Below are positions 521 through 61,252 of a stretch of 64,000 nucleotides of DNA, one piece after another (within the stretch, counting starts at the first letter, position 1; the number at the start of each line of letters is the position of its first letter). The translations under genes and the position numbers were made by a program. The DNA is taken from IMG/VR virus record IMGVR_UViG_3300042864_001965. One strand, 5' to 3'. This DNA is from a virus. The notes beneath the pieces were generated by a model. It was given only the letters and a program-made list of their open reading frames with translations. It had not been told where the DNA came from and did not search any database.

Positions 521-2821
521 TCAAATAATCGTTGCCAGTGATTCTTTAAAAGGTACTGGATAGCTTGAATTTTGAAAAACCCGTACTGTATAAGCCGATT
601 GGACTGACCCCCAATCGGCTATTTGTTGTGCCTCTGTATAAACGACGCTTCGGGCTGACGATACTGACCATTCTCGTTTTACTGTGGACTCGTCGTAAAT
701 TCTGACTACATAGCTGTCCAATTCTCCTGCTGCGTAAGCAATGTCGATATAGTCGATCCAACGACCATCTAACCGCGTCCGTCGATACCAAGTAATAATT
801 AAATCGTTATTATCTTTTTCCCCTCTTACAGCACAAGGGAAAGGCTTCAATCCTTCTAAGGTGATTGTGTGAGAAACTTCCTCCTCTATATCAGTTTCAA
901 GTAATCCATTAGGAACTACTTTTAATAAATATTCTCGATTAATATCAGAAAGATTTAAGGGGAATCGAACTAAATAATTAGTTAGTAACACAAATTTTTC
1001 CCCTGTTATATGCCTAGAAATGGCTGGTTCAGTTCCCTTGACTCCACGAATTGTATATGAAATATCAAATGTCAAGGGATTGTTGGACACAATAGCAGCA
1101 TTTTTAAAAGCTACAATTTCTCCAGTAGAAAACCAACCTAATTGTTTGCCTGACAAAAATGTTTCAAGGGTAACTGGCTCTAATTGCCCTGAATTTATGC
1201 TTACTCGTATCCAATTTAAATCGTCAATAAAACTAGGAGAAGCGTTGTTAAAATTCGGGGAGAAGCTTAATACAGTACCAGTTACGCTGTTGGCAACATT
1301 ACCAACAGCAAAATCATAGCTTAATCCGTTGTCATCAGAATAAAATAATGCTCCTTTCCTAAAACTAGAGTTACCTTCAATTGCCACATAAATTCCTATA
1401 TCTGTATCTCGGCTGTTAACTATTGGGCATTCAATAGGAATAGCGTTAGCGCGTCCGTAGGGACGAGGAGTGTTATTGTCTGGCGGAAATTCGTTATAGG
1501 AACGAGGAGTGTTATTGTCTGGCGGAAATTCGTTATCTATAGGAATATCTGGCAAATATCCTACTCCTTGAAATCGAGTAGCTTCAATTTCAATTAAATA
1601 ATTTACGCCTCTTACTTTTTTCGTGATTTGCATCAATTCCTGATGATAATTGTTATTATCATTAGTAAAAATTACATCCCCAACCTTTAAATTTTCCCAT
1701 GCTGGTAATAAAAACATTTTTGAAAAAGTTTTTGATTGCGTTTTCCCTAAAAAAAGAATTTTTGAGGCAATATTCATGAAAAACATATCTATATCTATTA
1801 GCTTAGTTTGAAAACTAAGCTCGTTTGTGTGAGTATCTGATGGGTCTTTAGCTACTGCAGTAATAGGTTCATAATTTTTTAAAACATTTAGCCCAGATAC
1901 CGTAACAGCACTGGGAGTTTCTCTAAAATGAGTCAGTTTTTTTTCATTAATGTCAATAGGATTTTCTCCAAATTTTTTAGACCCAAAAGAGCTTTTAGGG
2001 ATAAAAATAGGATCAGATGATTGTTCTTGTCTTTTAAAAATGATTTTATCTTTTGGCTCCCTTGCTACAATAAAAAAAGCTCTCATAAGTTCTTCTAACT
2101 GATCAGCAAAAGATGTCCCATCAAACAATAAATCAAATCCTTGAATTCGGTAATCATCAGGAATGTCAGTCACATCAATTTGATCGTCTGTTCTACTAGC
2201 TAATTCACAAATAGTTTTCAAAATATCTTTTATTTTTGGATTGTTTCCACTTTCTCCAATCACTTCAACATCAATAGTAGGAAATCCAGTGCCATCATAA
2301 TTAGCAATCGGATAATTATTAAAAATTAAAAAAGACATTCCAGTAAAAGCAGGTACTGGATTAGATTCTTTTGACTGAATTACTGACGATGGTGTAGTTT
2401 GATTGCCAGTATAAATAGTTGTATGCTCAATAAACTTTAGGCTTTTTTCGTCATTAGTTTCGGAATTGTAAACGAGGACGCTGTTCATCCAAACCCGCCT
2501 AACAGAGCCAATTTTTCTAGCAATTGGATAAGCGGCTGTCAAAAAATAAGTGTAAACTTCGGTAGTTTGCCCACCACCACCACCTTTTCCGCCTTGCCTT
2601 TCGGATGTGACGACTTCCTTAAGAGGAATCCCCCACATCATAGTTAGCCCTTCTTTCCTCACCCTTCCAAAAGGATAGGATAGGCTTCTGCCGTATTCAG
2701 CATCGGGAACACCAGTATCCTCAATTTTTCCTTTTTGTTGGGTAGGGGGTTTAGGAGCAAATAGAGATAATAATAGGTTAGCTCCGATTCCTATCGCTAC
2801 GGGAATGAGAAAATTAGCCAC
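521..2821 (-). CDS. tail host-specificity protein (lambda J / GTA gp15-like)
   Basis: 766 aa. The hydrophobic N-terminus, then YPFGRVRKEG and the Gly-run GGKGGGGGQTTEVYTYF, resemble the Phage-tail_3 type N-terminal region. It lies on the same strand as the tape measure and NlpC/P60 genes. Confidence 0.7.
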   Translation of the reverse strand: MANFLIPVAIGIGANLLLSLFAPKPPTQQKGKIEDTGVPDAEYGRSLSYPFGRVRKEGLTMMWGIPLKEVVTSERQGGKGGGGGQTTEVYTYFLTAAYPIARKIGSVRRVWMNSVLVYNSETNDEKSLKFIEHTTIYTGNQTTPSSVIQSKESNPVPAFTGMSFLIFNNYPIANYDGTGFPTIDVEVIGESGNNPKIKDILKTICELASRTDDQIDVTDIPDDYRIQGFDLLFDGTSFADQLEELMRAFFIVAREPKDKIIFKRQEQSSDPIFIPKSSFGSKKFGENPIDINEKKLTHFRETPSAVTVSGLNVLKNYEPITAVAKDPSDTHTNELSFQTKLIDIDMFFMNIASKILFLGKTQSKTFSKMFLLPAWENLKVGDVIFTNDNNNYHQELMQITKKVRGVNYLIEIEATRFQGVGYLPDIPIDNEFPPDNNTPRSYNEFPPDNNTPRPYGRANAIPIECPIVNSRDTDIGIYVAIEGNSSFRKGALFYSDDNGLSYDFAVGNVANSVTGTVLSFSPNFNNASPSFIDDLNWIRVSINSGQLEPVTLETFLSGKQLGWFSTGEIVAFKNAAIVSNNPLTFDISYTIRGVKGTEPAISRHITGEKFVLLTNYLVRFPLNLSDINREYLLKVVPNGLLETDIEEEVSHTITLEGLKPFPCAVRGEKDNNDLIITWYRRTRLDGRWIDYIDIAYAAGELDSYVVRIYDESTVKREWSVSSARSVVYTEAQQIADWGSVQSAYTVRVFQNSSYPVPFKESLATII
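1463..1536. repeat. 39-bp tandem duplication (about 1.9 copies) inside the tail protein gene
   Basis: ACGAGGAGTGTTATTGTCTGGCGGAAATTCGTTAT occurs at 1463 and 1502. It encodes NEFPPDNNTPR twice in frame. Confidence 0.9.
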
Positions 2822-2855
2822 GGCTTTTTAAAAGATAGTATTTTCTCTATTCTAA

Positions 2856-2928
2856 TAGGTTGAGTAGGAATCGAACCTACCTAAGACGAATTATGAGTTC
2901 GTTGCCTTAACCGCTCGGCCATCAACCC
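2856..2928 (-). tRNA. tRNA with CAU anticodon (Met, or Ile2 if lysidine-modified)
   Basis: 73-nt cloverleaf: acceptor GGGTTGA/TCAACCT (G1-U72 wobble), D-stem GCC/GGC, anticodon stem ACGAA/TTCGT with loop CTCATAA, T-arm GTAGG-TTCGAAT-CCTAC. No CCA is encoded. Confidence 0.8.
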
Positions 2929-2933
2929 TTGAC

Positions 2934-3377
2934 CTATTTAGGAAAAAATAAAGTAGGAGAGATATTAAAAAAATCGGCTAATTTTTGAACGTGAATATCT
3001 GTTATCTCTCGCTGTCTATCAAAAATATCATCTAGGATTGATTGATCCTCAAAAATAGATAATAAGTCTTGCTTTTGCAAGTTCTTTAGTTCTAACAAAA
3101 ATTTCAATAGCTCAACTCCATAAATATCAGGTATTGGCTTTTGATTTTCCTCATACTCATAAATCAAAGTTCCTAAAACACTTAAATACTCCCTTTCTTC
3201 TATTGTCAATTGAATTTTATCTAATATGATTTTATCTAAAAAAGAACTGATAACTCTTTCCGTGTTTTCTAGCTCTTCCTTGTCGTAAATAGGACGAGGA
3301 GGGTATTGTTTTAATAATTCTAAGTATTTATTTGTATCAAACATAGTGTGACTGTAATCGCTGTAACTTTTTATCAT
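2934..3377 (-). CDS. HTH DNA-binding protein, HigA/COG5499-like antitoxin-type C-terminal domain
   Basis: The C-terminal LQKQDLLSIF...REITDIHVQKLADFFNISPTLFF matches the antidote-type HTH pattern. No partner toxin ORF is adjacent. Confidence 0.45.
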   Translation of the reverse strand: MIKSYSDYSHTMFDTNKYLELLKQYPPRPIYDKEELENTERVISSFLDKIILDKIQLTIEEREYLSVLGTLIYEYEENQKPIPDIYGVELLKFLLELKNLQKQDLLSIFEDQSILDDIFDRQREITDIHVQKLADFFNISPTLFFPK

Positions 3378-3418
3378 AGGTCAAGTCTTTGATTTTGTCA
3401 ATATGTTTGATTTTAAGT

Positions 3419-3500
3419 GGGTTAGGCTGGATTTGCACCAGCGTGGAATTAAATCTACAGATTTACAGTCTGTCACCTTCGGCTACTCGGTCACTAACCC
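3419..3500 (-). tRNA. tRNA-Tyr (GUA), long variable arm, atypical T-loop
   Basis: 82 nt: acceptor GGGTTAG/CTAACCC, anticodon stem ACAGA/TCTGT with loop CTGTAAA, 14-nt variable region, T-arm GCTGG-TGCAAAT-CCAGC. Position 55 is G instead of the canonical U. Confidence 0.6.
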
Positions 3501-3529
3501 TTGTTTGTTTCAATCCCTTGTCTAAATTT

Positions 3530-3558
3530 ATCTTACTATAATTCTTAATGCTTGTCAA
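3530..3558 (-). promoter_or_regulatory. sigma70-like promoter TTGACA-17-TAAGAT upstream of tRNA-Tyr
   Basis: Minus strand reads TTGACAagcattaagaattatagTAAGAT, about 30 nt upstream of the tRNA 5' end. Confidence 0.5.
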
Positions 3559-4104
3559 TCATATTGGTTTTTGATTTTCTTGATTCTTTTGAGATTCTTG
3601 CAAATTAAGAAGTTGAAGCATTGCCTCTCCTGCGTCTTTACGCGCCATGCTACAAGTCCAGAGTCTTTGTTCATTGCGCTTGATAATGATAATTTCTGTA
3701 TTAGAAACTAAACAAACTAAATCATTTTTCTGTTTTATTAGTTGATTAATGGCTTCTAATTTTTGCTTTTGTTCTAATTCAGAAACGGGTTGAGGGTTTT
3801 CTCCGTACTCTTGTGTGGAGAAAACAACAGCTAACATAAAACTTTTTGTTTCTTTAAACTGAAAACGAATAATCTGCCAACTAAATTCACCATCAGGCTC
3901 TAATTCTCGATTCCAAATATTTAGAAAGGTTTCTAAATAACCTTCTAATCCTTTTTGAGTTTGACGGTTTTTATTAATATCACTGAAAAGTCCTTGATGC
4001 TGTTGAGGATAGTTTTCAACAGGTTTTACTGACTCACTGTCTTGAATAGAGCAAGAATGACAGGGATTAAATGGAAACATAAAGGGCATATTGTTTGCTA
4101 TCAA
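3559..4104 (-). CDS. hypothetical protein (181 aa)
   Basis: Intact ORF in the co-oriented gene string; no motif recognised. Confidence 0.45.
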   Translation of the reverse strand: MIANNMPFMFPFNPCHSCSIQDSESVKPVENYPQQHQGLFSDINKNRQTQKGLEGYLETFLNIWNRELEPDGEFSWQIIRFQFKETKSFMLAVVFSTQEYGENPQPVSELEQKQKLEAINQLIKQKNDLVCLVSNTEIIIIKRNEQRLWTCSMARKDAGEAMLQLLNLQESQKNQENQKPI

Positions 4105-4151
4105 AATATTAGGAAAGTTTAATAATTTGTTACAGATTAACCATATTAGAT

Positions 4152-4376
4152 TTATTCTCTGTAAAAATTAAGATCACACCAAAAGGAATCTTTCCAAAAA
4201 TTTATCAATTGTATATTTTTTTCGGCTATTAATTTTCGCCAAAGACGAAAATTCTCAAAAAAATTATACCATCCAAAAGGAACATCTTCTCTAAGGGTAG
4301 TCCAAATAATAGGTAAATAGCTTTTGATAGTCATGACAGCAATCAAAAGGTAATAGTTTATTTTAGTCTTTTTCAT
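4152..4376 (-). CDS. hypothetical small protein, paralog of 5172..5459
   Basis: The shared C-terminal block VPFGWYNFFENFRLWRKLI matches VPRGWDNFFERFRFWQKLI in the paralog. Confidence 0.45.
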   Translation of the reverse strand: MKKTKINYYLLIAVMTIKSYLPIIWTTLREDVPFGWYNFFENFRLWRKLIAEKNIQLINFWKDSFWCDLNFYRE

Positions 4377-4655
4377 GTCTTAATAGTCTTGACTTTATTT
4401 AAATCCTACCACTTATTTTACATTTAATTTTTCAAAAGTTAATCCTAAACAAAATGCAAACCAAAGCCAAATATACCAAAACCTGAGAAACAACTCCGAT
4501 CATGTTAGCTGTAAGTTGTTAAGTCTTATGACAGTAAATACACAAGTAAAAATAATTAAATTTACAGCCACTAATAAATAAGGTTTTTCTGTTTTTTAGA
4601 CTTCATTTTAGTTTAATCTTTTTAGGTGTTCTATATTACTTTACCACAATTAAAG

Positions 4656-4847
4656 TTATTTGTCTATAACTTTGATAAGAAAATAAATTAAATTTACTTT
4701 TTCCGATGTCAGTGTTTTGATTTTCATTAAGATTTCTACTAATTTATCCTTAAGTTCTTTTTTAGTGGGTTCTGTGTCACTTGGTTCATAAATGAAAGTT
4801 TTAGCACTTCCATCCTGTTCTATTTTAATCAAAGTGTATTTTTCCAT
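4656..4847 (-). CDS. hypothetical protein (63 aa)
   Basis: ORF starts 7 nt after the stop of the upstream interrupted ORF. Confidence 0.4.
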   Translation of the reverse strand: MEKYTLIKIEQDGSAKTFIYEPSDTEPTKKELKDKLVEILMKIKTLTSEKVNLIYFLIKVIDK

Positions 4848-4853
4848 AACCGT

Positions 4854-5168
4854 TTACAATTCTATTTCATCATTACCAGTAAGAAATCCCGATATATCGA
4901 AATGATATTCACTGTCACCATTTTGGGAAACTACTATTCCCCCAAACTCTAAGAGTTTATTGTCAAGAAATTGCTTGGATTGTTTTAAAGAAATACAGTT
5001 TTCTATGGCAAATTCCTTAGCACTAATCGGTTTTTTGTACCGGTATTTAAAGTCTATATCAAGTTTTTTGTTTCGAGTGTCAGCCCACGAGAAATAGGCT
5101 AACTATGTTCCCAAGAGAAATCCTAGTAATAAAGTTGGTATTCCAATAAGATAAATTTTGTGATTCAT
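4854..5168 (-). pseudogene. membrane-anchored small protein ORF interrupted by one in-frame TAG (5103-5105)
   Basis: MNHKIYLIGIPTLLLGFLLGT-TAG-LAYFSWADTRNKKL... stays in one frame for 104 codons. The part after the TAG has no start codon of its own. Confidence 0.5.
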
Positions 5169-5171
5169 TAT

Positions 5172-5459
5172 TTATTCTTTATAATTATTAATAGTTTCCC
5201 AGAAATAAATTACTAGCAGAGATTTATTTCTTTTAAGTATTAGCTTTTGCCAAAAACGAAACCTTTCAAAAAAGTTATCCCATCCACGAGGGACATCAAC
5301 AAAAATACTATCTAAAATGATAAGTAGATACCTCTCGACAAAATTGCGTATTGTTAAGATTAAAGAACGTGGTTTTATTTCCATTTTTTTTAGTTCCGCT
5401 TTGGTCAATTTTTTCCTTAAAAATTGACCAATCTTTTTATCTAGTTGTGTTTGATTCAT
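5172..5459 (-). CDS. hypothetical small protein, paralog of 4152..4376
   Basis: Shares the GW.NFFE.FR.W.KLI block with 4152..4376. Confidence 0.45.
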   Translation of the reverse strand: MNQTQLDKKIGQFLRKKLTKAELKKMEIKPRSLILTIRNFVERYLLIILDSIFVDVPRGWDNFFERFRFWQKLILKRNKSLLVIYFWETINNYKE

Positions 5460-5480
5460 TGTTTTTTTCGGGTTTAATAT

Positions 5481-5942
5481 TTAGTTTAATCTTAATATAT
5501 CTAGCCCTCGATTTCTGATTCTTTGAGCAAGGTCTTTATTAAATACTTTTGATTTTTTAATCACAGTAATCTGATTGCTTGGCCAGTATTCTAGCAGAAA
5601 ATCAACGAGTTCTATTGAAGTTGTGTGTATTCTAGCTTCTTTGCTACATCCTTTTAGTAATTGGTAAAAAAGAAATAGTCCACTAAGCAGGTCTTTTTCA
5701 ATTACCCAAAATACTAATTTAATTAATGTATTGCTAAGTCGCCAGTGTTTTAGAAGTTGGCATAGTTTTGTTTCCTCTAATTGCCAGTAACTGAAAAAAT
5801 CCAAAACATTAGAAATTACTGGGTAGTCGCTTCTACTTACGAAGTCAGATACTAGAGCATCGATTGCTTCTAGAGATTGACACATCCCGATGGATGCAAT
5901 CGATAATCCCTCTAATTTATATCCTGAGATAATTTGTAGCAT
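5481..5942 (-). CDS. hypothetical protein (153 aa) next to the CRISPR trailer end
   Basis: Intact ORF; no motif recognised. Confidence 0.45.
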   Translation of the reverse strand: MLQIISGYKLEGLSIASIGMCQSLEAIDALVSDFVSRSDYPVISNVLDFFSYWQLEETKLCQLLKHWRLSNTLIKLVFWVIEKDLLSGLFLFYQLLKGCSKEARIHTTSIELVDFLLEYWPSNQITVIKKSKVFNKDLAQRIRNRGLDILRLN

Positions 5943-6005
5943 GGTTTTGGAGTTTTGTTTTGTTTCCTTGCCTTAGTTTGCCTTGCCTTGTCTTGTATTT
6001 GTTTC

Positions 6006-6551
6006 CTTGCAATTTACTTAACAAGTCAAGCCGATTGTTACAAAAACCTACCATAGGATGATATACAATGGTACAACTCTTGCAATCTACTTAACAAGTC
6101 AAGCCGATTGTTACCGGCTAAAAACATTCGCTAATCGCGTCGGTAAACTCACTCTTGCAATCTACTTAACAAGTCAAGCCGATTGTTACCTAAGTCGATC
6201 ACTTGGATAAAACCGATATTCTCTGGCTTGCAATCTACTTAACAAGTCAAGCCGATTGTTACAATTGCTATAGATACTCCATATAGTAAATGTGGCCCTT
6301 GCAATCTACTTAACAAGTCAAGCCGATTGTTACCATTAAAGGCTCTAAGGTTTCCTGAGTTTTGGATACTTGCAATCTACTTAACAAGTCAAGCCGATTG
6401 TTACATGACCCTCAAAATGTCACGACCCCAACGTTAAAAGCTTGCAATCTACTTAACAAGTCAAGCCGATTGTTACCTGTGTGGATGAGGCCTATCATGC
6501 TATCTGAATTGGCAACTTGCAATCTACTTAACAAGTCAAGCCGATTGTTAC
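6006..6551 (-). CRISPR. CRISPR array, 8 x 36-nt repeats and 7 spacers
   Basis: The plus-strand repeat CTTGCAATCTACTTAACAAGTCAAGCCGATTGTTAC starts at 6006, 6079, 6154, 6227, 6298, 6369, 6441 and 6516. The 7 spacers are unique and 35-39 nt long. The repeat at 6006 has one substitution (AATTTAC). A degenerate terminal repeat distal to the nuclease gene suggests minus-strand transcription from the nuclease side. Confidence 0.95.
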
Positions 6552-8233
6552 CCAGTCTCCCAGAGTGTAAGCTGCGTATAGCCTGCGTTGACTGTTTGCG
6601 CGGGTTGCGAGTGGATCGACCTTTTCCTTGTTTTTTTCTTGGGTGTCACTGGCTCGGAGGTCAAAACCAGTAAGGTTTCGAGGGTTTCTTCCCCAAGTAA
6701 CAATCGGCTGGACTTGTCAAGTAATTCCTCCTGCGCTGATTCCTTATCGAAATCCTTCAGAGGCTTAACTTCCCCGGTACAAGCCGGGTAGCTTCTTACG
6801 AAGTCTGCTTTCCCTAAGATGTTGATTGCGGCGGCCACATCTCTAGGTAAAGTACATCCACACTCTAAACATTTATGGGTGCGGGTTGATAAACTTTTTT
6901 TAACACGATTGCCACAGCGAGGACAATCCTGGCTGGTGTAAGCTGGTTGAACTTTGATAAACTCTCGGTTGGGAGTTTTCATTTTCGTTTCAAGAAAACC
7001 GGTTAATTGTCCTAAACTAGCATCAGCAAAGGATTTATTTAATCCCCCTTTGGCTTTCGCGTTATTGCGTTCGTAGCCTTTACCGTCTTCTCTTTTTTTC
7101 GGTTTAGGTCGTCGCATTAAATTCTTTAAGTTGAGGTCTTCTACGGCTACAGCGCCATGATTTCTAGCAATATCGGTACTTAAGGCATGATTAAATCCTT
7201 TGCGTTGTCTTGCTATTTTTTCGTGAGTTTTGGCAACTTTAGCACGAGTTTTAGCGAGATTTTTGCCGTCTTTATTTTCCCCTGCTTTATACTGTCTAGC
7301 GGTTTTTCTTTGCAGTCTTGCTAGTCTTTTTTGCCGTTTTCTATAGTATTTGGGCGGGTCAATTTGTTGCCCGTCGCTGGTACTAATTATATATTCTAGT
7401 TTTACGTCAATACCGATTGCTTTATCGGAATCAGGTAGATCATCTACTTCAAATTCACCAAATAGACTTAGATAATATCCCGATGGGTATTTGATAATTG
7501 ATACAGTAGAGGCTTTTCTGTCACCCCACCGAATGTCTAAGGTATTGTTGACAATCTTTAAATCGCCTAATGTTTTGCCACAGCTACCTATAGATATTTT
7601 ATCCCCTTTTCTAACAGCGCAATTGCTGATCTCAGAATAAAGAGATTTAATTTTATCTTCTTTTCTTTTAAATCTAGGAAGTTTTCTGTCTAAATTCTTT
7701 TTATCGAGTTTGGTGTAAGCTTTCCAAGAATCAGCAAGCTTTTTTAAAACCCCTTGGACAAAAGCCATAGGGATGTCCTTGCATAGTTCTGGACATTTTT
7801 CTTTTGTAATACAGCCACATAACCCAAAATAATTATCAGATTTTAACCGCCGTTGAATAGGGACATGAACAGGATAAGAGTGACCTGTTTTTTGTCTTTT
7901 TTCTCTAGCTATCTGTATTTTAACTTTTTGCTTGCCAGTTAAATATTTGGGGGTGTAAAGGGGATTAGGAAGGGATTTACCTTTTTCGTTTTTCAGGGAG
8001 TCAATAAATTGAGGTTTTTTAGCTAAACGACGTTTAACCCGTTTAACTGGTTTTCCTGTTATTTGCTCAAGCTCGTCGTAATACTTATTAAGCTGATATT
8101 CCATCAGTAGCTCTAGTCCAAAATTCCAGACAGCTTTAAGCTCGTCCATCCAGCGATCAATATAGGCTCGCTGAGTGGCATTAAGGTTAAGCTTTGTGTC
8201 CGCAATAGTTTTTTTGACTAGCATGGCTTTCAT
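6548..8233 (-). CDS. TnpB-like / Cas12-family RuvC nuclease (candidate type V CRISPR effector)
   Basis: RuvC-I is AIGIDVK (D codon 7406-7408) and RuvC-II is AVAVEDLN (E codon 7139-7141). A CPRCG...CLECG zinc ribbon precedes RuvC-III RDVAAAINI (D codon 6839-6841). Candidate ATGs are at 8251, 8233 and 8224; 8233 has a GAAGG Shine-Dalgarno. The TAA stop (6548-6550) lies inside the first CRISPR repeat. Confidence 0.85.
   Translation of the reverse strand: MKAMLVKKTIADTKLNLNATQRAYIDRWMDELKAVWNFGLELLMEYQLNKYYDELEQITGKPVKRVKRRLAKKPQFIDSLKNEKGKSLPNPLYTPKYLTGKQKVKIQIAREKRQKTGHSYPVHVPIQRRLKSDNYFGLCGCITKEKCPELCKDIPMAFVQGVLKKLADSWKAYTKLDKKNLDRKLPRFKRKEDKIKSLYSEISNCAVRKGDKISIGSCGKTLGDLKIVNNTLDIRWGDRKASTVSIIKYPSGYYLSLFGEFEVDDLPDSDKAIGIDVKLEYIISTSDGQQIDPPKYYRKRQKRLARLQRKTARQYKAGENKDGKNLAKTRAKVAKTHEKIARQRKGFNHALSTDIARNHGAVAVEDLNLKNLMRRPKPKKREDGKGYERNNAKAKGGLNKSFADASLGQLTGFLETKMKTPNREFIKVQPAYTSQDCPRCGNRVKKSLSTRTHKCLECGCTLPRDVAAAINILGKADFVRSYPACTGEVKPLKDFDKESAQEELLDKSSRLLLGEETLETLLVLTSEPVTPKKKTRKRSIHSQPAQTVNAGYTQLTLWETG
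6697..6723 (-). ncRNA. anti-repeat (candidate tracrRNA core) inside the 3' end of the nuclease ORF
   Basis: Plus strand GTAACAATCGGCTGGACTTGTCAAGTA equals the reverse complement of the repeat at 25 of 27 positions. One of the two differences would give a G-U wobble in an RNA duplex. The true RNA ends are unknown. Confidence 0.6.
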
Positions 8234-8260
8234 GGATCGACCTTCTTTCATTCTTATTTA

Positions 8261-8290
8261 AATCTACCATAACCCTGCTAGAAATGTCAA
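8261..8290 (-). promoter_or_regulatory. sigma70-like promoter TTGACA-18-TAGATT for the nuclease gene
   Basis: Minus strand reads TTGACAtttctagcagggttatggTAGATTTAAAT. A near-identical copy lies at 8703..8732. Confidence 0.6.
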
Positions 8291-8299
8291 GTAAGAAGC

Positions 8300-8671
8300 C
8301 TAAAGATTTTTTGAGATACCAGTCTCTACATCAGAACCTATAGCCCAACTTTTGTAAAAGTCAAAGCCAGTAGTATCAATATGAAAGGGAAACTTTAGCG
8401 ATTCCCAACATTCTAATAATCTTGGCACATCAACAATCTGAGACTTATGATTTAATCCTGTTTCAGTAATAATAAACTTTTCAAATACTGTAGGCACGAT
8501 TTCAATGTGAATATAGTTAGTGTCGTCAAATTTATCCGATTTTTTAGCTAATTCAGAAGTAATTTTAACAAGAATTTCTTTTGTAAGCAGTTTTTTCCAC
8601 GCAAAATACTCTTTATTGTAATTACTTGAATCTACATAAGCCACAAATTTGATAATATAATCTGCATTCAT
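8300..8671 (-). CDS. hypothetical protein (123 aa) immediately upstream of the nuclease gene
   Basis: Intact ORF with its own copy of the nuclease promoter; no motif recognised. Confidence 0.5.
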   Translation of the reverse strand: MNADYIIKFVAYVDSSNYNKEYFAWKKLLTKEILVKITSELAKKSDKFDDTNYIHIEIVPTVFEKFIITETGLNHKSQIVDVPRLLECWESLKFPFHIDTTGFDFYKSWAIGSDVETGISKNL

Positions 8672-8702
8672 AAATATTTAAAGTAGTGCTAAACTATATT
8701 TA

Positions 8703-8732
8703 AATCTACCATAAGCCTACTAGAAATGTCAA
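8703..8732 (-). promoter_or_regulatory. second copy of the TTGACA-18-TAGATT promoter
   Basis: Minus strand reads TTGACAtttctagtaggcttatggTAGATTTAAAT, about 30 nt upstream of the ATG at 8671. Confidence 0.55.
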
Positions 8733-8878
8733 GTAAAAATAAAGATATAAATTATTATCCCCTCAACGCCCGTATCTCGCCACTTGAAGAGAAAAAGCTA
8801 AAAAAATACTGTGAAACTTACCATCGGTCAATAACCGATGTAGTCCGGGAATTGATTAGAAGTTTACCCGATGACTAA
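8726..8878 (+). CDS. possible ribbon-helix-helix (CopG/Arc-like) protein, 50 aa
   Basis: Not in the ORF track because it is shorter than 60 aa. MSSKNKDINYYPLNARISPLEEKKLKKYCETYHRSITDVVRELIRSLPDD has a beta-strand then two-helix pattern. It is divergent from, and overlaps, the promoter at 8703..8732. No clear Shine-Dalgarno. Confidence 0.35.
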   Translation: MSSKNKDINYYPLNARISPLEEKKLKKYCETYHRSITDVVRELIRSLPDD

Positions 8879-8944: not shown

Positions 8945-9691
8945 TTATTTTCCGATTAACAGTTGACGGTTTCTAGCCTTAGAAAAAAGATGCTTAACTT
9001 CCTTGAGGTTTTCGGTGGGGACATAGGATGCTTGATTAACTCGCAACCCCTGACACACTAAATGAGAGTGTCCATTCTTCTCTAACCAACGCTCTAACTC
9101 TCTTCCAGACTTGAATCCTAGTTCTTTCCCTAACTCAGCAGTAGAACGACCCTCAAAACTCACGTTTCGTCCGTTTTTACAGATAATTGTCTCGGTGACT
9201 TTTTCAACCTTCTCGATCACAATATCTGGACGGCCATCTAACAAGGCTAAAACCTCAGCACCATGTATTAATCGAATTGCGTCACGCCGATCCATGTAGT
9301 AGGTTTTAGCTTTTGTCAGTTCTAACTCAAGTTCTAATTCTCGAATACGTCCACTTTGAGCGGGGATTACTTCTTTGATAAGTTGCTTTGCTTGACTAAA
9401 TGCCTTGACTAAGTTGCGCTTACAAGCAATGACCTGTGAAGTATTTCGAGACAGTGTCATCAAAAAAGTTGCTTGCTCTTCATTCAGGTAGCAGTAACGC
9501 TCAGGACGACCGCCGCTAGAGCCTTCTAGGGGTTTCGACATTTGAAATGCGACAACTCCAAACTCTTGAATCTCGTTAATGTATTTTTCTATGGTTTGAC
9601 GCAAGGCGCGGTGTTCAATCCCCAACTCACCAGCAATCAAACGAGAATCAACGACAAGACAATCATTCTGTGATACTATTTCAATAGCCAT
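8945..9691 (-). CDS. Rha-family phage regulatory protein
   Basis: The N-terminal VVDSRLIAGELGIEHRALRQTIEKYINEI...RPERYCYLNEEQATFLMT fits the phage pRha domain pattern. Confidence 0.6.
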   Translation of the reverse strand: MAIEIVSQNDCLVVDSRLIAGELGIEHRALRQTIEKYINEIQEFGVVAFQMSKPLEGSSGGRPERYCYLNEEQATFLMTLSRNTSQVIACKRNLVKAFSQAKQLIKEVIPAQSGRIRELELELELTKAKTYYMDRRDAIRLIHGAEVLALLDGRPDIVIEKVEKVTETIICKNGRNVSFEGRSTAELGKELGFKSGRELERWLEKNGHSHLVCQGLRVNQASYVPTENLKEVKHLFSKARNRQLLIGK

Positions 9692-10126: not shown

Positions 10127-10549
10127 TCAAACCCGACAATTCCGCATCAGAGCAGTGAAGCCCGCTTGGGCAAAATGTTTGTCAAAAGCGAGTGCTTCTG
10201 TGATTCCATTTTCTTCCATTATTTTGAAAGATACGCAATTTGTATGACTCCATGCTTTGTCTTTACGCTGTTGATATAGTCTTAATCCTTGTTCAAATTG
10301 CTCACTGGTTTGGGGAACAATACGAACATTGGGGTTAGAACGCAAATTTTTAGTTAGCTCTATGGCTAAGTCACGGAAATACTCACCACGTTTAGAAAAG
10401 TCGTTTAAAACTTCGATAAGGACGGCTTCACTGGTGACAATATAGACGGGATGCAATGTTTTTGATAGCTAAACAGCTTTTTTATGCAAATTATCACTGG
10501 GGTTAAGTAGGGCAACCCAATAACCTGTATCGGCGAAAACGACTCTCAC
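10127..10549 (-). pseudogene. PIN-domain (VapC-like) toxin gene with in-frame TAG (10469-10471)
   Basis: A GTG overlapping the antitoxin stop (TAGTG) opens MRVVFADTGYWVALLNPSDNLHKKAV-TAG-LSKTLHPVYIVTSEAVLIEVLND...FDKHFAQAGF, all in one frame (140 codons). The usual third acidic residue appears as N (SHTNC). Confidence 0.6.
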
Positions 10550-10731
10550 TAACTATCCTGTTGCTGTTGATAATGGTCAAAGTTTTGGGCTAAGTCTTTT
10601 GGTAGTTTTGCCCATTCTTCATTGGGAATTTTGGCAGAAAGTCGGGCGGCTAATTCCCAGATTGGTTCTGCATTATAGTCAAATTTAATATTTGCTAAGG
10701 AGAAGCTTTCGATAGGTGTTTGATTATTCAT
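10549..10731 (-). CDS. putative antitoxin partner of the PIN gene (60 aa)
   Basis: Small ORF whose stop overlaps the PIN start; call rests on position only. Confidence 0.4.
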   Translation of the reverse strand: MNNQTPIESFSLANIKFDYNAEPIWELAARLSAKIPNEEWAKLPKDLAQNFDHYQQQQDS

Positions 10732-10849
10732 AGGTGTATTTGATTTAGAAGAAATTAGTTTTTCTAATTTAAAAATTGCTTCTTGTTCGTTACGCCAAGC
10801 TCGATCGCGTAGTTGGTTGGCTTTGAGAACTAGATCGCCAATTTCATTT

Positions 10850-10942
10850 CTAAGCTAAACGGCTTTTACTTCGGATCACCGATATAGACTCCAAAAGGGT
10901 TATAGCTATTGGATCATGCAGGTTAAGCGCCGTTTAGCTTAG
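10850..10942. repeat. 14-bp perfect inverted repeat CTAAGCTAAACGGC ... GCCGTTTAGCTTAG flanking 65 bp
   Basis: Read directly. A related string, GCTGTTTAGCTA, surrounds the TAG that interrupts the PIN gene. Confidence 0.7.
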
Positions 10943-11047
10943 TAGCTGGCTCAGGTAATGGGATATGAACAGAAGCAAGCATTTCTCGATCTCTGTGAAC
11001 CAAAAATCCCCGTCTCTTTAGAGCGGGGAGTGTCAAAATCTAACTTC

Positions 11048-11356
11048 TTACGGTATGGACTCTCGGTTACGCAGGAAAAACTCTGGACATCTTTTTTTAG
11101 CATTGACAAGGATTTGCTTTATTGTTTCGTTGTTAAAGTAATCACGCCAAATATTAATTAGTTCGTCCTGTGACCTCGAACTACTGTTCTGTTCAACAGC
11201 ATATCTGATCGCTCCCATAGTTTCTCCCAGTGTCAGTCCAGACTTAAGATACTGGCAAGTTCTTTCCTCAAGTATCTCTTGAGTCTGATTATCGAGGGAC
11301 AGTGCCACGGTAGGCAACACTCCCAAAAACAATAAACTTAAAATAATCTTTTTCAT
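11048..11356 (-). CDS. small secreted protein or lipoprotein candidate (102 aa)
   Basis: N-terminal signal-like MKKIILSLLFLGVLPTVALS. Confidence 0.45.
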   Translation of the reverse strand: MKKIILSLLFLGVLPTVALSLDNQTQEILEERTCQYLKSGLTLGETMGAIRYAVEQNSSSRSQDELINIWRDYFNNETIKQILVNAKKRCPEFFLRNRESIP

Positions 11357-11377
11357 CGGGATTAAGGTAGCTTTCTA

Positions 11378-11809
11378 TTATTTTACCACTCCTAAAGTAA
11401 GTACTCGATAAATTAGTGCAGGCGGGTATTCATGAATATAGGTCTTCATCACGCCATTTATTGAATCAGCATGGATGTACTCACTATCTCCCAGATAAAT
11501 CCCCACATGACCATTTACTCCTGACTTACGAAACATCAAAATATCTCCTTTACACAAATCACCTTCAACTCTATCTAGTAACCGATCAAGGAATTTGACT
11601 AAGAAGTTATTCCGGGGAATCCGTTCGTAGTTTTCAATAATGAAATTATGGGGCAAGAATCCGACTTTAATCCCTACGCCAGCAATAAATCCTACACAAT
11701 CGGTTCCAATCCCTTTAAGCGATTGACCATGAAACCAAGGAGTACCGAGCCATTCAAGAGCTTCGGTAACAATTTGATTACCCAAAGAATCGTTTTTTAG
11801 TTCGTTCAT
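11378..11809 (-). CDS. NlpC/P60-family tail-associated peptidase (lambda K-like)
   Basis: Catalytic Cys context GTDCVGF and GHVGIYLGDSEYIHAD His motifs. It lies immediately downstream of the tape measure gene. Confidence 0.75.
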   Translation of the reverse strand: MNELKNDSLGNQIVTEALEWLGTPWFHGQSLKGIGTDCVGFIAGVGIKVGFLPHNFIIENYERIPRNNFLVKFLDRLLDRVEGDLCKGDILMFRKSGVNGHVGIYLGDSEYIHADSINGVMKTYIHEYPPALIYRVLTLGVVK

Positions 11810-14800
11810 TTTGTGTATTTTCCCGTTCTTTCAATTGATTCAAACTATAACCCATATCATTCCGTGATTCTACAGTCACGTTATTGGTGCTATTAATTAC
11901 CAAAGACTGATTAGAGCTATTGTTATTTGAGGTTGTGGAGTAATTAGGCTTACCCCCGACAAATCCTCCATTAGCATAGTTCTTAATAGGAGCATTATTT
12001 CTGTACTCTAGATATGCTTCTGTTTCTTTAGGGTTAAGAACCAATTCGTCTTCATTGGCTACGATTAATCGAGGTTTTCGGCCTCCCGACATTGCTCGTT
12101 CGCGCTGAAAAGCTGAAATGATATTTTTCTCTATCGGAGCATTGGCATCCCCAACTTTCCCACCATCACTAAATAGGCTGAATCCTGTACCTAGAGAAAA
12201 AGCAGAAGCCGGAGCAGAAGCAAAGCTAGAGGCTCCTATACTACCAAGTAATCCAATCGAACCAAGTCCCCCAAGCCCTCCACTAAAAATCCCTGTTATT
12301 CCGCTAAGCAAGCCATTAAATAAGCCACCGCCGCCACCTCCCCCAAAGATAGAGGAAAAGATGTTACCTACTGGTTTAAAAATGCTACTGAGGGCATTAG
12401 TGAAAAAGTTACCTACTGGCCCGATGATTGCATTAAATACTGACTCAAATGCCTGAGTTATTGGTTTAGTAAAACCATCGATAGCAGAAGTTAAAGCATC
12501 GATAGCAGGCCTAGTGATACCTTCGACAAATTTAGTTGCAATATTTAATCCAAGACTACTAAAAGCCGATCCTATTCCTTTTCCTTCTCTAATATCAGAG
12601 AAAAAGCTTTCAGCTGCGCCGCGATTTGGAGAGGCATCTAATGCTACTCGCTCTAATCTTAATTCTGCAAGTTTTTCCCATTCTGATCGGATATTAGCTA
12701 CAAAATCAGCGTACTGTGGTAAGTCTTTGTAAGGCTCTAAATAATCTTCTAGTTCCTCTTTTTCTTTTTGTAGGCTAATACGTTCGGCAAGGATAGCAGA
12801 ATCATCAAATAAAGTCGGTCGGGATTGATTCTCTAATTTCATTCTTTGAACAGTTAAATCATTTAACCGATCACGAATACTCCTGACTGTATCTCTGGTT
12901 TTTCTAAATGATGCTTCTAAGCTGGCTACTCCCTGATTCTTGCCTAATTGTTCAATCGCTTGATCAAGAATTGCTACCTGTTCTTTAGCTAATTCAGCGC
13001 GTTTAGCTAAAGCATCAATACTATCTGTCATTTCTTTGAGAAATTCAGGGGGGAGAGCTATACCTTTTCTTTGAAATTCTCCTAAGATTTCTTTTATCGC
13101 GTCGCTGTATTTTTGTTGAGCCTCAGCATTTAAAAGTAAAGTCCGTCGCTGGTCTTCTAGTGATTCAATCTGAGAGCGATATTGTCGAGAGACTTCTGTA
13201 GCACTCTTATTAATTTCTTCTTGTACTGTCAGATACCCTTTAGAGTTGATAGTCAAATCAGCGACATTCTCGGAAGCATCTCTTAAAGTACGTTCTAATG
13301 CACGGGCATCTTCCTCTTGCTGCCGTCTAAATTTCATTGATCTGTCAAGAGCATTGTTTAGATTTTGTTGCTCTTCTAGTTGTCTTAAGAACTCCTCAGC
13401 GTTTTGATTGGCTATTTCAGCTTTGCGATTTTGATCAGCCGCTGCGCCAAGATTACCTGTAGGAAGATTAGGAACGGGCGGTAAATTAGGACTCTGGAAG
13501 TTAATCGGATTGTCTTTAAGAACCGGTGGTAAATCGGCATCCCAGAAATTATCTTGATTTTGATTAGGTAGAGTCGGTAATTGGGCTATAGGTGGAGGAC
13601 TACTAAATTCTGGACCACCTTTTCCTTCTTTTGTTTCTTCTTTTGTTAAAACACGGGCAGGAGAAGGATTAGGGGTGGAGTCTTTAATGGATTGGCTAAT
13701 TGCATTAGTAGCATTAGTTATTATTTTTCGATTATTTAGTTGATTGCCGTTAATGTTTGCATAAGCAGTTACAATATATTCTTTCCCATTAATGTTTACC
13801 AGTCCAACATTACCAATAACTTTAGAGTTATTTCCAATTTTTCCGCCGATTTCATTATTATACTTAAAATTTCTTGTTTGTCTCAGAGATTGTTCAGCTA
13901 ATTGACTTGCAGGATTTTGATTTTTAATTAAAGACTGCATAGCTGACGTTACGTCTTGTGCTGTTGAAATGTTTGGAGTTCCACTGCCTGGTATATTTAA
14001 ATACCTAGAAATAGTAGTGTTTTTATAACCTTCTTTTCTGGCTAATTCTGTAGCTTTGGTTAGCCCACCTAGCCGATCAATTAAAACATTAGTTGCCGTA
14101 TTATCTGACTTTTCTAGCATTAACTGTACTAGCTGTTCAACTGTTTTAACTTGATTGGCTTTTAATTGTCCGTGTGGATCAACCAAAGGCAATTTTATGG
14201 CGATAGCATCTTTTAAGGAAAGTTTTCCGCTTGTTATTTCTTTGGCAATCAAATCAGCAATAATAACTTTAATTGTACTAGCTGGTGACGCTGGGGGTGT
14301 TTGAGCGTTTTTAGAATATACAGTTTTTCCGCCAACTTCTTGAACTAAAACAGATTGAATATTTTTTGGTAATCTGTTGGTGATTTGTTGCTGAACTGAT
14401 GGAGAAGGGTTAGGGGTGGAAGTTGATGGAGTGGGTAAACCGCCTTGATTTCTTCTGATTTGTCGAATACGGTTTGATGCTCCGCTGTTAGCAGGATTGC
14501 CGTCATATCGCAGTGCGTCTAGTTCGGATTGAGTACGAGGGGCATTTGGTTGGTATTTTCGTAAAGACTGATCGTAAACCTTTAACAGGTCTTCCATCCG
14601 TTTCATGCCTTGCCCTGGGTAATTAGCCCCTGGGAAAGATGCCCATTCTTTGCGGGTTGCGTTAATTGCCCCACGAATATCTCCCTTAAGAAGCTCGTCT
14701 AATCCACCTCTCATTAGAATACGGCTTAATGCGACTAAATCTTGAGAGACAGGAGAAAAATCTTTTAATCCTAATTTTGCTTTTTCTTCATTCCATGTAA

Positions 14801-21518: not shown

Positions 21519-22746
21519 TAGCTTTTCTCCCCTACTAATTGAATTATTTCGTCGTATAGTCCGCAATCGACTATTATCTGAGTGGCGAAGACTGGCACTT
21601 GGCCAGCTTGCATAGCTTCTAACAGAATTTGAGCGGTTTCTTGATCAAGAAAATATTTTTTATTTTCTTTAAACTGGTAAGGCAGAAAATCACCAGGATT
21701 AAGACTTTGTGACTTAGAACCTTCTTTAGATTGTGCTATTAGGTAGGCGTGAACCATGGCGGCAATTTGACTAACCGTAGCCGATAGTGAATTAATTTCT
21801 TCACATTTGACTTTTTGAATCCCTGAATATTTTTTCAGGATTAACCAGTCTGGCCAATCTTCCCACTCCTCGATGGGTAATCCCCAGGCACACCATTTGT
21901 AATAGATTTCTTCCCAATTAATGGGGTTAGCGATTGCCTCTAACCGTGCATTAATTGCGTCATCTATTCGTTTTTTTCGTCGTCCTCCGTTGGCTCTGAT
22001 TCTGGTTTTTCTTCCAGTTTTTCAGGTTCTGAGTTCTGCCACTGAGTTATGTCTTGCCAGAGATAGTCTTGATAGAGTTTTACTACCATAAATTGAGACA
22101 TATCATTAATGTCTTGTATGGTGAAATCAACAGAAGATTTGTCTTTAAGTTTAACTACCCGTCGAGGACTACCTAGAAATTTAGCTAACAAGGCTTTATT
22201 GTAAGTTTCATAGGTTGTTTCCCGATCCTTAAATAAAGCGTTTAATTCATCGAGATAAGGCTCTACAAGTTCTATAGATTCTCTTGTTAGTTCTCTTGTT
22301 TTTTTACGGTTGCTTAAAATTGATTGCTGCACGATAGCGGCGGTTTCTACTTTTTGTTCTACGCTGTCAGATTTTACCCCGTCAAGGGCATCAACCATGA
22401 CCTGTTCAATTCGTTCTCGGATCGAACCGTCGTTAACTACTACTCCTTCAATTTCAGCAGTGGATAGTCCCGTTTTTTGCCCGATAGCTTTAATTTTCTC
22501 AAGATAAGCTTTGTCAGCTTTTTCCCGTGCCTCTAAGTATTTCTTGACTGTTTCATTTTCCTTTGGATTAATCCCGTACCTTTTTAAAAACTTGATACCA
22601 ATCTCTTCATTTTCTTCTGTAACAATTGCGTCTATCTTTTCCAATAAAGCATCATTGTCTTGAATGTAAAAAATCCATTCTTTTTTTAAAGGGAAAAAGA
22701 ATGTTTCATTAAACTTCAATTTACCTAATACGCTTAACTTCGCCAT
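21518..22746 (-). CDS. tail assembly chaperone, long form made by -1 frameshift (GT-like)
   Basis: The zero frame stops at 21964. The -1 frame is open from the slippery site to 21518 (RIDDAINARLEAIANPINWEE...). Confidence 0.65.
21964..22746 (-). CDS. tail assembly chaperone, short form (G-like)
   Basis: 260-aa acidic ORF directly upstream of the tape measure gene. Confidence 0.65.
   Translation of the reverse strand: MAKLSVLGKLKFNETFFFPLKKEWIFYIQDNDALLEKIDAIVTEENEEIGIKFLKRYGINPKENETVKKYLEAREKADKAYLEKIKAIGQKTGLSTAEIEGVVVNDGSIRERIEQVMVDALDGVKSDSVEQKVETAAIVQQSILSNRKKTRELTRESIELVEPYLDELNALFKDRETTYETYNKALLAKFLGSPRRVVKLKDKSSVDFTIQDINDMSQFMVVKLYQDYLWQDITQWQNSEPEKLEEKPESEPTEDDEKNE
21970..21976 (-). 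promoter_or_regulatory. -1 programmed frameshift slippery heptamer A_AAA_AAC
   Basis: Zero-frame codons are GAC GAA AAA AAC GAA TAG. The X_XXY_YYZ pattern sits 2 codons before the stop. Confidence 0.65.
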
Positions 22747-40776: not shown

Positions 40777-40849
40777 GCGGGGTGAGTGAAATGGTTTACA
40801 CATAGGCCTCATAAGCCTAAAACACTAGGTTCGACTCCTAGACCCCACA
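40777..40849 (+). tRNA. tRNA with CAU anticodon (Met or Ile2)
   Basis: Acceptor GCGGGGT/ACCCCAC with a C2:A71 mismatch, D-arm GTG-AAATGGTTTA-CAC, anticodon stem TAGGC/GCCTA with loop CTCATAA, T-arm CTAGG-TTCGACT-CCTAG. Confidence 0.7.
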
Positions 40850-40863
40850 CTAAGGAACAAAAT

Positions 40864-61197: not shown

Positions 61198-61252
61198 TAC
61201 TGATTGCTGATCACTAACTATTAGATATAATTGTACTACAGAACTTTCTGTT

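Follow-up and report, generated by a model that had tools for sequence, protein, structure and literature searches.

The DNA analysed here is a stretch of 64,000 nucleotides (nt) from the IMG/VR virus record IMGVR_UViG_3300042864_001965 (64 kb; hereafter the window), and it belongs to a Microcystis myophage resembling Ma-LMM01. On its minus strand lies the gene of a TnpB-like RuvC nuclease that runs directly into a CRISPR array, and the matched spacers of this array and of its close relatives point to small Microcystis plasmids. An earlier note on this DNA, made from its letters alone, had singled out the locus as a minimal CRISPR system carried by a phage. Its core features are the following.

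6006..6551, minus strand (predicted sense of the CRISPR RNAs, crRNAs): CRISPR array, 8 repeats and 7 spacers
6548..8251, minus strand: type V-U2 effector (C2c8/Cas12u2), 567 amino acids (aa)
6839..6841, minus strand: RuvC-III aspartate D471 (PRDVAAAINI), invariant in 43 family members
6860..6925, minus strand: zinc ribbon C443-x2-C446 ... C461-x2-C464; C443, C446 and C461 invariant, C464 at least 90% conserved (43 members)
7139..7141, minus strand: RuvC-II glutamate E371 (AVEDLN), invariant in 43 family members
7406..7408, minus strand: RuvC-I aspartate D282 (GIDVKL), invariant in 43 family members
8261..8290, minus strand: sigma-70-like promoter, TTGACA-18-TAGATT, its −10 box preceded by a TG motif; agrees with the consensus at 10 of 12 positions and lies upstream of the nuclease gene

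A repeat search recovered the array as first described, with eight 36-nt repeats, seven unique spacers of 35-39 nt and a degenerate copy at 6006. The repeat, CTTGCAATCTACTTAACAAGTCAAGCCGATTGTTAC, starts at positions 6006, 6079, 6154, 6227, 6298, 6369, 6441 and 6516, and mismatch is confined to the copy at 6006-6041, which forms the nuclease-distal end of the array. The spacers measure 37, 39, 37, 35, 35, 36 and 39 nt, and all seven are different and mutually unrelated. Read on the minus strand, the repeat is GTAACAATCGGCTTGACTTGTTAAGTAGATTGCAAG, followed by the spacer, and the stop codon of the nuclease gene falls within the first repeat. No other copy of the repeat exists in the window, where the chance expectation is 0.

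Against the NCBIfam C2c8 profile NF038192 (V_cas_c2c8), the nuclease scored 361.2 bits, above the curated cut-off (350), in a match spanning positions 5-456 of the 457 in the profile, and its best match in PADLOC was Cas12u2 (6.9e-123); by these profiles, therefore, the nuclease is a type V-U2 (C2c8/Cas12u2) effector. This gives a name to the type V-U-like, cyanobacterial subtype to which the earlier note had pointed, and which was reportedly defined by Shmakov et al. in 2017. Besides the profile match, the locus shows a split RuvC domain and a zinc ribbon in a TnpB-like core, an adjoining array and no adaptation module in the window. The closest named relatives, annotated as C2c8, come from Xenococcus, Chroococcus, Myxosarcina, Nostoc and Dolichospermum and are 39-50% identical. 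The profile libraries disagree on the label, since a PADLOC model named Cas12f (PDLC01698) also matched (4.7e-118), with Cas12u2 still the best, and the NCBIfam Cas12f2 profile was not reached (36.6 bits, cut-off 450). Neither were the IS200_TnpB (167.5 bits, cut-off 425) and IS607_TnpB (83.4 bits, cut-off 350) profiles of the same collection, in which guided_TnpB scored 217 bits. The locus is present in a single copy in the window, which contains no TnpA, and the junction between gene and array is identical in every phage contig that reaches it.

The open reading frame (ORF), for which a TnpB/Cas12 layout and 561-567 aa had been proposed, has 567 codons and retains D282, E371, D471 and the CxxC…CxxC zinc ribbon. 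Its Pfam matches are OrfB_IS605 (4e-18) and Cas12f1-like_TNB (2e-18; residues 414-478). An AlphaFold2 model has a confident core, with a predicted template-modelling score (pTM) of 0.71, and predicts residues 74-127 and 489-567 to be disordered, the tail at a predicted local distance difference test score below 50; its Foldseek neighbours are Cas12p, ISDra2 TnpB and ISFba1 TnpB (TM 0.74-0.77 on target), together with Cas12f and LaTranC. A search of the PDB by sequence returned no V-U2 structure. In the 43-member alignment, the C-terminal tail (489-567) differs among members in sequence and in length, keeps its frame and ends in a conserved QLxLW directly before the first repeat. Among 13 haplotypes, the core varies at 77 sites, of which 43 are third codon positions. 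By these comparisons, the catalytic residues of the nuclease are intact and under purifying selection. Alternative ATG codons at positions 7 and 10 lie closer to the N-terminus of the family, and the true start is likely M7 or M10.

The promoter, also reported before, was found at 8290-8261 (−) and is contained in a 43-nt direct repeat (8255-8297 and 8697-8739, 93% identical), whose other copy holds an identical promoter module at 8703-8732. The duplicated module precedes the nuclease gene and also a neighbouring ORF of 123 aa (8300-8671), and looks like a reused phage promoter cassette. As the earlier note had stated, the window has no cas1, cas2, cas4, tnpA or Tn7 genes: none of Cas1, Cas2, Cas4, Y1 TnpA or Tn7 proteins appeared among the Pfam matches of its 71 non-nested ORFs (E<=1e-5, 17 families matched). 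This absence rests on the Pfam list, the PADLOC scan of the window ORFs being dominated by methyltransferase models (best 25 of 67 families). Likewise, cas1, cas2 and cas4 were not found up to 6 kb from the locus in three relatives.

Anti-repeat and predicted scaffold RNA

Two further features, both overlapping the 3' end of the nuclease gene, suggest how the guide RNA of this system may be built.

6694..6726, minus strand: anti-repeat of 28-33 nt, pairing with repeat positions 1 to ~31-34, within the 3' end of the ORF (~codons 509-520)
6552..6693, minus strand: scaffold of ~142-145 nt, from the anti-repeat to the first repeat, overlapping the disordered protein tail and ending in the conserved AGCTTACACTCTGG (QLTLW)

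The anti-repeat lies 145 nt upstream of the array and matches 27-30 nt of the repeat, with 90-93% complementarity to all eight copies. Its predicted duplex with the repeat has a free energy of −43 kcal/mol vs −16±3 for shuffled repeats (z = −8.7). The anti-repeat, scaffold and first repeat fold together at −75.9 kcal/mol (z = −5.5 vs shuffled sequence), and the scaffold folded without the repeat did no better than shuffled sequence (z = −0.35). Within the phage population, polymorphisms in the paired part of the anti-repeat are limited to positions 6717 and 6718, where they only swap A-U and G-U pairs.

Cognate anti-repeats were detected in six loci with different repeats (the window, the Aphanizomenon phage vB_AphaS-CL131, L154, L181, L187 and L191), 128-145 nt upstream of the array; that of CL131, identified here, is located 134-147 nt upstream. 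When every anti-repeat was compared with every repeat, the cognate repeat ranked first in three of the six loci, those with the most distinct repeats, and the empirical p was <=0.035 in all six. Blocks of nucleotides are conserved in the scaffold across loci whose proteins are 33-38% identical, and relatives carry the motif AGCTTACNCTCTGG just before the first repeat. This comparison shows that the complementarity between repeat and putative anti-repeat is conserved by covariation in part of the family. An anti-repeat universal to V-U2 was considered and dropped, significance having been reached in six loci and not in five others.

We infer from these data that the anti-repeat and scaffold form a guide scaffold overlapping the 3' end of the ORF, comparable to a tracrRNA (the trans-activating RNA of CRISPR systems) or an omegaRNA. 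The picture of a minimal locus drawn by the earlier note thus holds in that nuclease and array are both present without adaptation genes, and has to be widened to include the predicted scaffold with its anti-repeat.

Spacer targets, flanking motif and array orientation

A search of PLSDB matched one spacer of the phage population described below to the 6,987-bp plasmid p1 of Microcystis aeruginosa NIES-2549, and a local search placed three spacers on p1. We then used a target library composed of relatives of the DUF3987 replication protein of p1, taken from metagenomes and a large protein collection, and 37 of 88 spacers matched this plasmid family, the best at 35/35, 38/39, 37/38 and 37/39 positions. 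Two of them are spacers of the window.

6334..6368, minus strand: window spacer 4, matching plasmid contig L211 at 31/35
6477..6515, minus strand: window spacer 6 (nuclease-proximal), matching the Microcystis-type plasmid contig L207 at 34/39, 5' flank ...CTTTT

Window spacer 6 shares its target with spacer 14 of other phage contigs. The target contigs are 7-9.5 kb long, several are labelled Microcystis, and two are shown to be circular by their terminal overlaps. The targeted plasmids encode a DUF3987 replication protein of ~990 aa, a tyrosine recombinase and small helix-turn-helix proteins, and some members of the family carry HigB/HigA-like or MazE-Fic toxin-antitoxin modules; genes for phage structure or packaging were not noted on these plasmids. 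The share of protospacers that fall in the replication gene corresponds to the length of this gene (8/37 vs 22% of the library).

The 85 usable spacers had no match among 50,697 phage genomes (INPHARED), and an IMG/VR search with three target motifs hit by several spacers and with two halves of window spacers returned only the arrays themselves or chance 16-mers. No spacer matched the window or the related phage loci, as self-targeting would require. Targeting of viruses is therefore unsupported. The earlier note had envisaged phage-versus-phage or phage-versus-host targeting, and here the outcome differs: the matched targets are small host plasmids, neither other phages nor the host chromosome. 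A phage-borne effector with an array whose spacers match a mobile element of the host is the arrangement known from the conflict between phage ICP1 and PLE.

The protospacers also suggest a protospacer-adjacent motif (PAM). Read in minus sense, position −2 of the 5' flank is T in 30 of the 37 protospacers (p = 5e-11), position −1 is a pyrimidine in 30 and position −3 is A or T in 28, and their 3' flank gave no signal; on statistical grounds, the candidate PAM is approximately 5'-WTY, T-rich and one-sided. For comparison, TranC has the PAM 5'-TTC and TnpB the motif 5'-TTGAT (bioRxiv 10.1101/2025.09.28.678669). In all 13 relatives with arrays, the array is downstream of the gene on the same strand, and their repeats, although different, all end in TTG(G)CAAG or TTGGAAG beside the spacer. 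The same-strand arrangement, the conserved repeat end and the T-rich 5' flank together argue that the crRNAs are read from the minus strand. The third of these supports transcription of that strand independently, because a short T-rich 5' motif is typical of type V effectors and of TnpB.

The replication proteins deserve some additional remarks. A DUF3987 protein is also encoded by the phage lineage outside the window (L127-L147 and L149; e.g. IMGVR_UViG_3300044620_001600, on contigs shared with several arrays), and it shares 32-34% identity with the plasmid replication protein, a likeness through which phage and plasmid might cross-talk in replication. The window ORF at 59314-61266 was considered as the phage homologue and rejected: it has no Pfam match, and tblastn with the plasmid replication protein finds no homologue anywhere in the window. 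In p1, the replication gene (L046 658-2613) is annotated with 651 aa vs ~990 aa in its relatives, so that its start was probably mis-called or the gene is truncated. Several relatives of this protein (P0141, P0145, P0155 and others) bear the JGI names 'CRISPR-associated protein Cmr3' or 'ribonuclease M5', apparently through misannotation.

Array turnover and phage context

The exact repeat is present in 37 IMG/VR viral contigs, of which four short ones end before the nuclease gene. On all contigs that extend into the gene, nuclease identity is 93-100% (97-98% for full-length copies), and the gene joins the array in the same way. On these near-identical phage contigs there are 24 distinct arrays and, within them, 89 distinct spacers, and the seven spacers of the window occur in none of the other arrays. 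Several spacers overlap one target at shifted offsets or on opposite strands (21/23/56, 45/65/86, 06/14 and 54/88), indicating repeated independent acquisition. In all, the phage population shows a rapid turnover of spacer content. Its arrays are mosaics, and recombination between them may contribute to their spacer content. A polarised gain of spacers at the leader end was also considered and dropped on the full count of unshared spacers (42 proximal, 44 distal).

Some arrays contain 'spacers' of 18 nt, about half the normal length (spacer 9 in L001 and L014; spacer 36 in L008, L018 and L035), one of which is common to arrays that differ on either side of it; they may be truncated units or recombination scars. 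The flank at the nuclease-distal end of the array also varies, with at least five junctions among L001, L008, L013, L015, L034 and L036 as compared to window positions 5946-6005, which marks this end as a hot spot of rearrangement.

The repeat does not occur in 185,579 species-representative genomes of bacteria and archaea, with the exception of one 2.8-kb contig (L150; JBIPMW010000255.1), labelled as a metagenome-assembled genome of Crocinitomicaceae. This contig is 93-96% identical to window positions 2620-4847, joined to an array and without the array-distal neighbourhood (~window 4848-6005); it represents a piece of the same phage that was wrongly binned with a genome of Bacteroidota. With no further copies in the window or in these genomes, the sequence behaves as the CRISPR repeat that the earlier note took it for, and not as an interspersed repeat spread genome-wide. 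Its absence from these genomes also means that host arrays with the same repeat, which we considered as a source of spacers or of adaptation, are not that source.

Four viral contigs from different samples (L006, L011, L012 and L032) share a clean deletion, equivalent to window 6884-8372, that removes the promoter and nuclease residues 1-456 and keeps the anti-repeat, scaffold and array. The five spacers of contig L010 are identical to those of the deletion contigs, and its nuclease is intact. Variants made of array plus scaffold, without the nuclease, thus circulate in the population.

Beyond this lineage, about 20 other viral contigs (L176-L199, up to 107 kb) encode V-U2-like nucleases that are 26-47% identical, and most of them have an array of 5-28 repeats (36-37 nt) directly downstream of the nuclease gene. 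From these contigs, the carriage of V-U2 by phages appears widespread, beyond one case. The 128 spacers of these other viral arrays had no match within the collected loci.

As for the genomic context, the window is 89% identical in nucleotide sequence to Ma-LMM01/MaMV over 669 nt, and the tRNA-Tyr region is the sole stretch of high nucleotide identity to these phages in its first 25 kb. That the locus is phage-borne, as first proposed, is confirmed by this identity and by the tail, tape-measure and terminase genes of the window. Phage features with defined positions are listed below; the window also contains genes for the large terminase, both ribonucleotide reductase subunits, a thymidylate synthase and a cytosine methyltransferase.

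521-2821: tail protein
2856-2928, 3417-3500 and 40777-40850: three phage tRNA genes (Met, Tyr and Met, respectively)
11781-21566: tape-measure/lysozyme protein, 3262 aa

Just upstream of the nuclease gene, the window encodes a Rha/antirepressor-like regulator (8945-9691, minus strand), and so does CL131 (gp062, L151 2071-2784). The presence of a regulator adjoining the nuclease in the Microcystis phage and in the unrelated CL131 could reflect a conserved module or a coincidence. Contig L037 has a second TnpB-like ORF at 10340-11470, ~1.3 kb upstream of the nuclease gene and 35% identical to nuclease residues 113-487, which is absent from the window and may be an insertion of a TnpB of the insertion sequence (IS) type.

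Proposed function and relation to known systems

We consider it probable that this is a working type V-U2 locus of a Ma-LMM01-like Microcystis myophage, with the RNA-guided cleavage of resident plasmids as its most likely function. In the mechanism that we propose, a single minus-strand transcript from the promoter at 8290-8261 would comprise the nuclease mRNA, the scaffold overlapping its last ~60 codons and the repeat-spacer array, and would be processed into scaffold RNA and crRNAs. The anti-repeat would pair with the first ~31 nt of the repeat, acting in cis on the first unit and in trans on those after it, leaving the conserved repeat end (…TTGCAAG) and the following spacer of 35-39 nt as the guide. 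The TnpB-like nuclease (D282/E371/D471, zinc ribbon) would then bind this guide RNA, recognise the T-rich 5' motif and cleave DNA, such that during infection the phage would destroy resident plasmids that compete or interfere with it. New spacers could be inserted by host Cas1-Cas2 acting in trans, by adaptation genes elsewhere in the phage genome or by recombination between arrays.

A broader proposition, in which our belief and our doubt are balanced, concerns the lineage as a whole. A lytic Microcystis phage lineage would keep a fast-diversifying CRISPR memory against small plasmids of its host and gain spacers without adaptation genes of its own, be it through host Cas1-Cas2 in trans, array recombination during co-infection or a Cas1-independent route. 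Its effector, with a naturally split omegaRNA embedded in the coding sequence and a 5'-TT PAM, would be a living intermediate between TnpB and Cas12.

Several observations weigh against these proposals. Only two of the seven window spacers were matched (31/35 and 34/39), and 51 of the 88 spacers overall had no match. Most protospacer matches are to diverged relatives, at 87-97% identity, and because of this the PAM stands as a statistical inference. PADLOC recognises no defence system on plasmid p1. The anti-repeat was not significant at the expected position in five V-U2 loci (L152, L177, L180, L186 and L194), and RNAalifold, applied to a MAFFT alignment of six scaffolds, missed the anti-repeat helix and returned short conserved hairpins only, the anti-repeats being aligned out of register. 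Unshared spacers flank the shared blocks evenly, 42 on the nuclease-proximal and 44 on the distal side, and classical leader-end acquisition is therefore not demonstrated. Finally, the four contigs with the promoter and nuclease deletion indicate that the system is dispensable for some phages.

The mechanism might be the same and the targets be parasites of the phage or carriers of defence, such as satellite-like elements or plasmids with toxin-antitoxin modules acting by abortive infection, in a counter-defence like that of ICP1 against PLE. The HigB/HigA-like and MazE-Fic modules and the tyrosine recombinases of the plasmid family fit this view, as does the DUF3987 protein of the phage, whose likeness to the plasmid replication protein would allow replication cross-talk, and the heavy, repeated targeting implies strong selection; against it stand the PADLOC result on p1 and the lack of phage structural or packaging genes noted on the plasmids, and we regard this possibility as rather doubtful. 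In the main rival explanation, the nuclease would bind without cutting and silence or block plasmid or host genes under RNA guidance, as Cas12m and Cas12c do; such a role has been speculated on for the CL131 locus as well. It has been suggested that V-U effectors are perhaps too small for cleavage and possibly regulatory (relayed in PMC6293099), and plasmid-targeting V-M systems act through binding (review PMC11656645). However, the RuvC D/E/D triad is invariant in the 43 family members, in contrast to Cas12m, which only binds and whose triad is altered (PMC11656645, PMC10691335); TnpB proteins of ~400 aa are active nucleases (structures 8exa and 8h1j); and the protospacers are spread over the plasmid by length, with no focus on promoters or on a single gene. 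We judge binding without cleavage to be improbable, given the invariant triad and the spread of the targets, which do not cluster in regulatory regions.

Two other explanations concern the nature and the direction of the repeats. Were the array read from the plus strand, opposite to the nuclease, the crRNAs would have the form CTTGCAAT…GTTAC-spacer and the PAM would be 3' of the protospacer. Weak promoter-like matches do occur on the plus strand within the array, at 6258 and 6470, and the complementarity of anti-repeat and repeat holds on either strand; yet the array follows the gene on the same strand in all 13 relatives with arrays, the conserved end TTGCAAG adjoins the spacer in minus sense only, the flank in that sense is a 5' T-rich motif as in type V and TnpB, and the degenerate repeat is at the nuclease-distal end, all of which makes a plus-strand reading very unlikely. 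The locus could also be an ordinary TnpB transposon of the IS200/IS605 type lying beside repeats that are omegaRNA or transposon-end duplications without an immune-like function. Its generic TnpB Pfam domains, the guided_TnpB score, a scaffold RNA that overlaps the 3' end of the ORF like an omegaRNA, and the carriage of TnpB genes by phages of this and other groups are compatible with such an origin. We nevertheless give it next to no credence and side with the earlier note, which had set the ORF apart from ordinary IS605 TnpBs: the IS200_TnpB and IS607_TnpB scores are below their cut-offs, the window is without TnpA, the locus is single-copy there and has one and the same junction of gene and array on all contigs that extend to it, and its diverse spacers match foreign plasmids with a one-sided PAM.

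Plasmid cleavage by a V-U2 effector, the reading that we prefer, can be set beside several known systems. The closest is the V-U2 locus of the Aphanizomenon phage vB_AphaS-CL131, published in 2018 (Sulcius et al., PMC6293099), with ten spacers, one of them matching a cyanobacterial DNA primase pseudogene; no tracrRNA was reported and the direction of the array was left open in that study (PMC6293099). Both loci consist of a cyanophage C2c8-type effector followed on the same strand by an array of 36-nt repeats, without other cas genes and with an antirepressor-like gene beside the nuclease, and the match of CL131 to a primase pseudogene echoes the replicase-bearing plasmids matched by the window lineage. 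They differ in that the CL131 nuclease is ~38% identical, its repeat has another sequence and the phage is a siphovirus of a filamentous host. In contrast to the data for the window lineage, the CL131 paper contains no population data, target family or PAM (PMC6293099). The earlier note had stressed a catalytically intact, compact effector borne by a virus; the intact catalytic residues stand, and as a kind such a locus was known before, from CL131 (PMC6293099); the window locus is a new member of a defined subtype, in a different phage family and host. Cellular cyanobacterial C2c8 effectors likewise belong to the NF038192 family, with an array downstream on the same strand and a C-terminal QLxLW abutting it; their loci are chromosomal or plasmid-borne, unlike that of the myophage, and no clear anti-repeat was found in the Chroococcus locus (L152).

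Among transposon proteins, ISDra2 TnpB (PDB 8exa and 8h1j) shares with the window nuclease the core fold (TM 0.76-0.77 on target) and the layout of RuvC and zinc ribbon. The omegaRNA of IS200/IS605 TnpB overlaps the 3' end of its ORF and a T-rich 5' motif is recognised, and the predicted scaffold and candidate PAM of the window are similar. A TnpB, however, has a single guide fixed by the transposon end, whereas the window has an array of seven different, exchangeable guides, and the window nuclease is ~150 aa longer, with an insertion at 74-127 and a C-terminal tail; the window locus has no TnpA and shows no transposon behaviour. Transposon-CRISPR intermediates with a split omegaRNA, named TranC, have been described (Jin et al. 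2025 Cell, as cited in PMC13565253), and in concept they resemble the window system as predicted here, combining a TnpB-like protein with an omegaRNA functionally divided into a tracr-like scaffold and repeat-spacer crRNAs. LaTranC (574 aa, PAM 5'-TTC) is similar in size and in the simplicity of its PAM, although its relation to the window nuclease is weak in sequence (E 8e-6) and in fold (TM 0.40-0.53; PDB 9jfo/9jfq).

The miniature, tracrRNA-dependent Cas12f effectors of type V-F, with T-rich PAMs, are structural neighbours as well (AsCas12f, E 8e-14). Many V-F loci carry cas1, cas2 and cas4, whereas the window has none of them. Vibrio phage ICP1 reportedly uses CRISPR-Cas of type I-F, adaptation genes included, against PLE, which is said to be a proven anti-phage satellite. 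Like the window phage, it is a lytic phage with a CRISPR of its own and spacers against a mobile element resident in the host, not against a virus; its system is a complete class 1 system with adaptation genes, in contrast to a class 2 V-U2 system with none in view and small plasmids as targets. Types IV-A3 and V-M are, like the window locus, systems of mobile elements that lack adaptation genes and have spacers against plasmids; they reside on plasmids and work through binding or silencing, whereas the window locus resides in a phage and its nuclease site is intact. The plasmid-borne type IV-A3 acquires spacers through host Cas1-Cas2 in trans (review PMC11656645), and by analogy this is a possible model for the window locus.

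In the literature searched we found no report of a V-U2 locus in Microcystis phages, of a tracr-like scaffold or a PAM for V-U2, or of a phage CRISPR directed at plasmids, nor, there or in the PDB, any experimental characterisation of a V-U2 effector. The locus and its 37 natural variants make V-U2 testable, as they provide a core of ~490 residues, a predicted guide of anti-repeat, scaffold and repeat, an orientation and a candidate 5'-TT PAM. The rapid turnover of spacers without visible adaptation genes poses a sharp question as to the source of spacers in minimal systems. If our interpretation is true, a phage CRISPR memory spent on resident plasmids would add a phage-plasmid axis to the conflicts among mobile elements, with relevance to the ecology of Microcystis blooms, where Ma-LMM01-like phages and small plasmids are both common.

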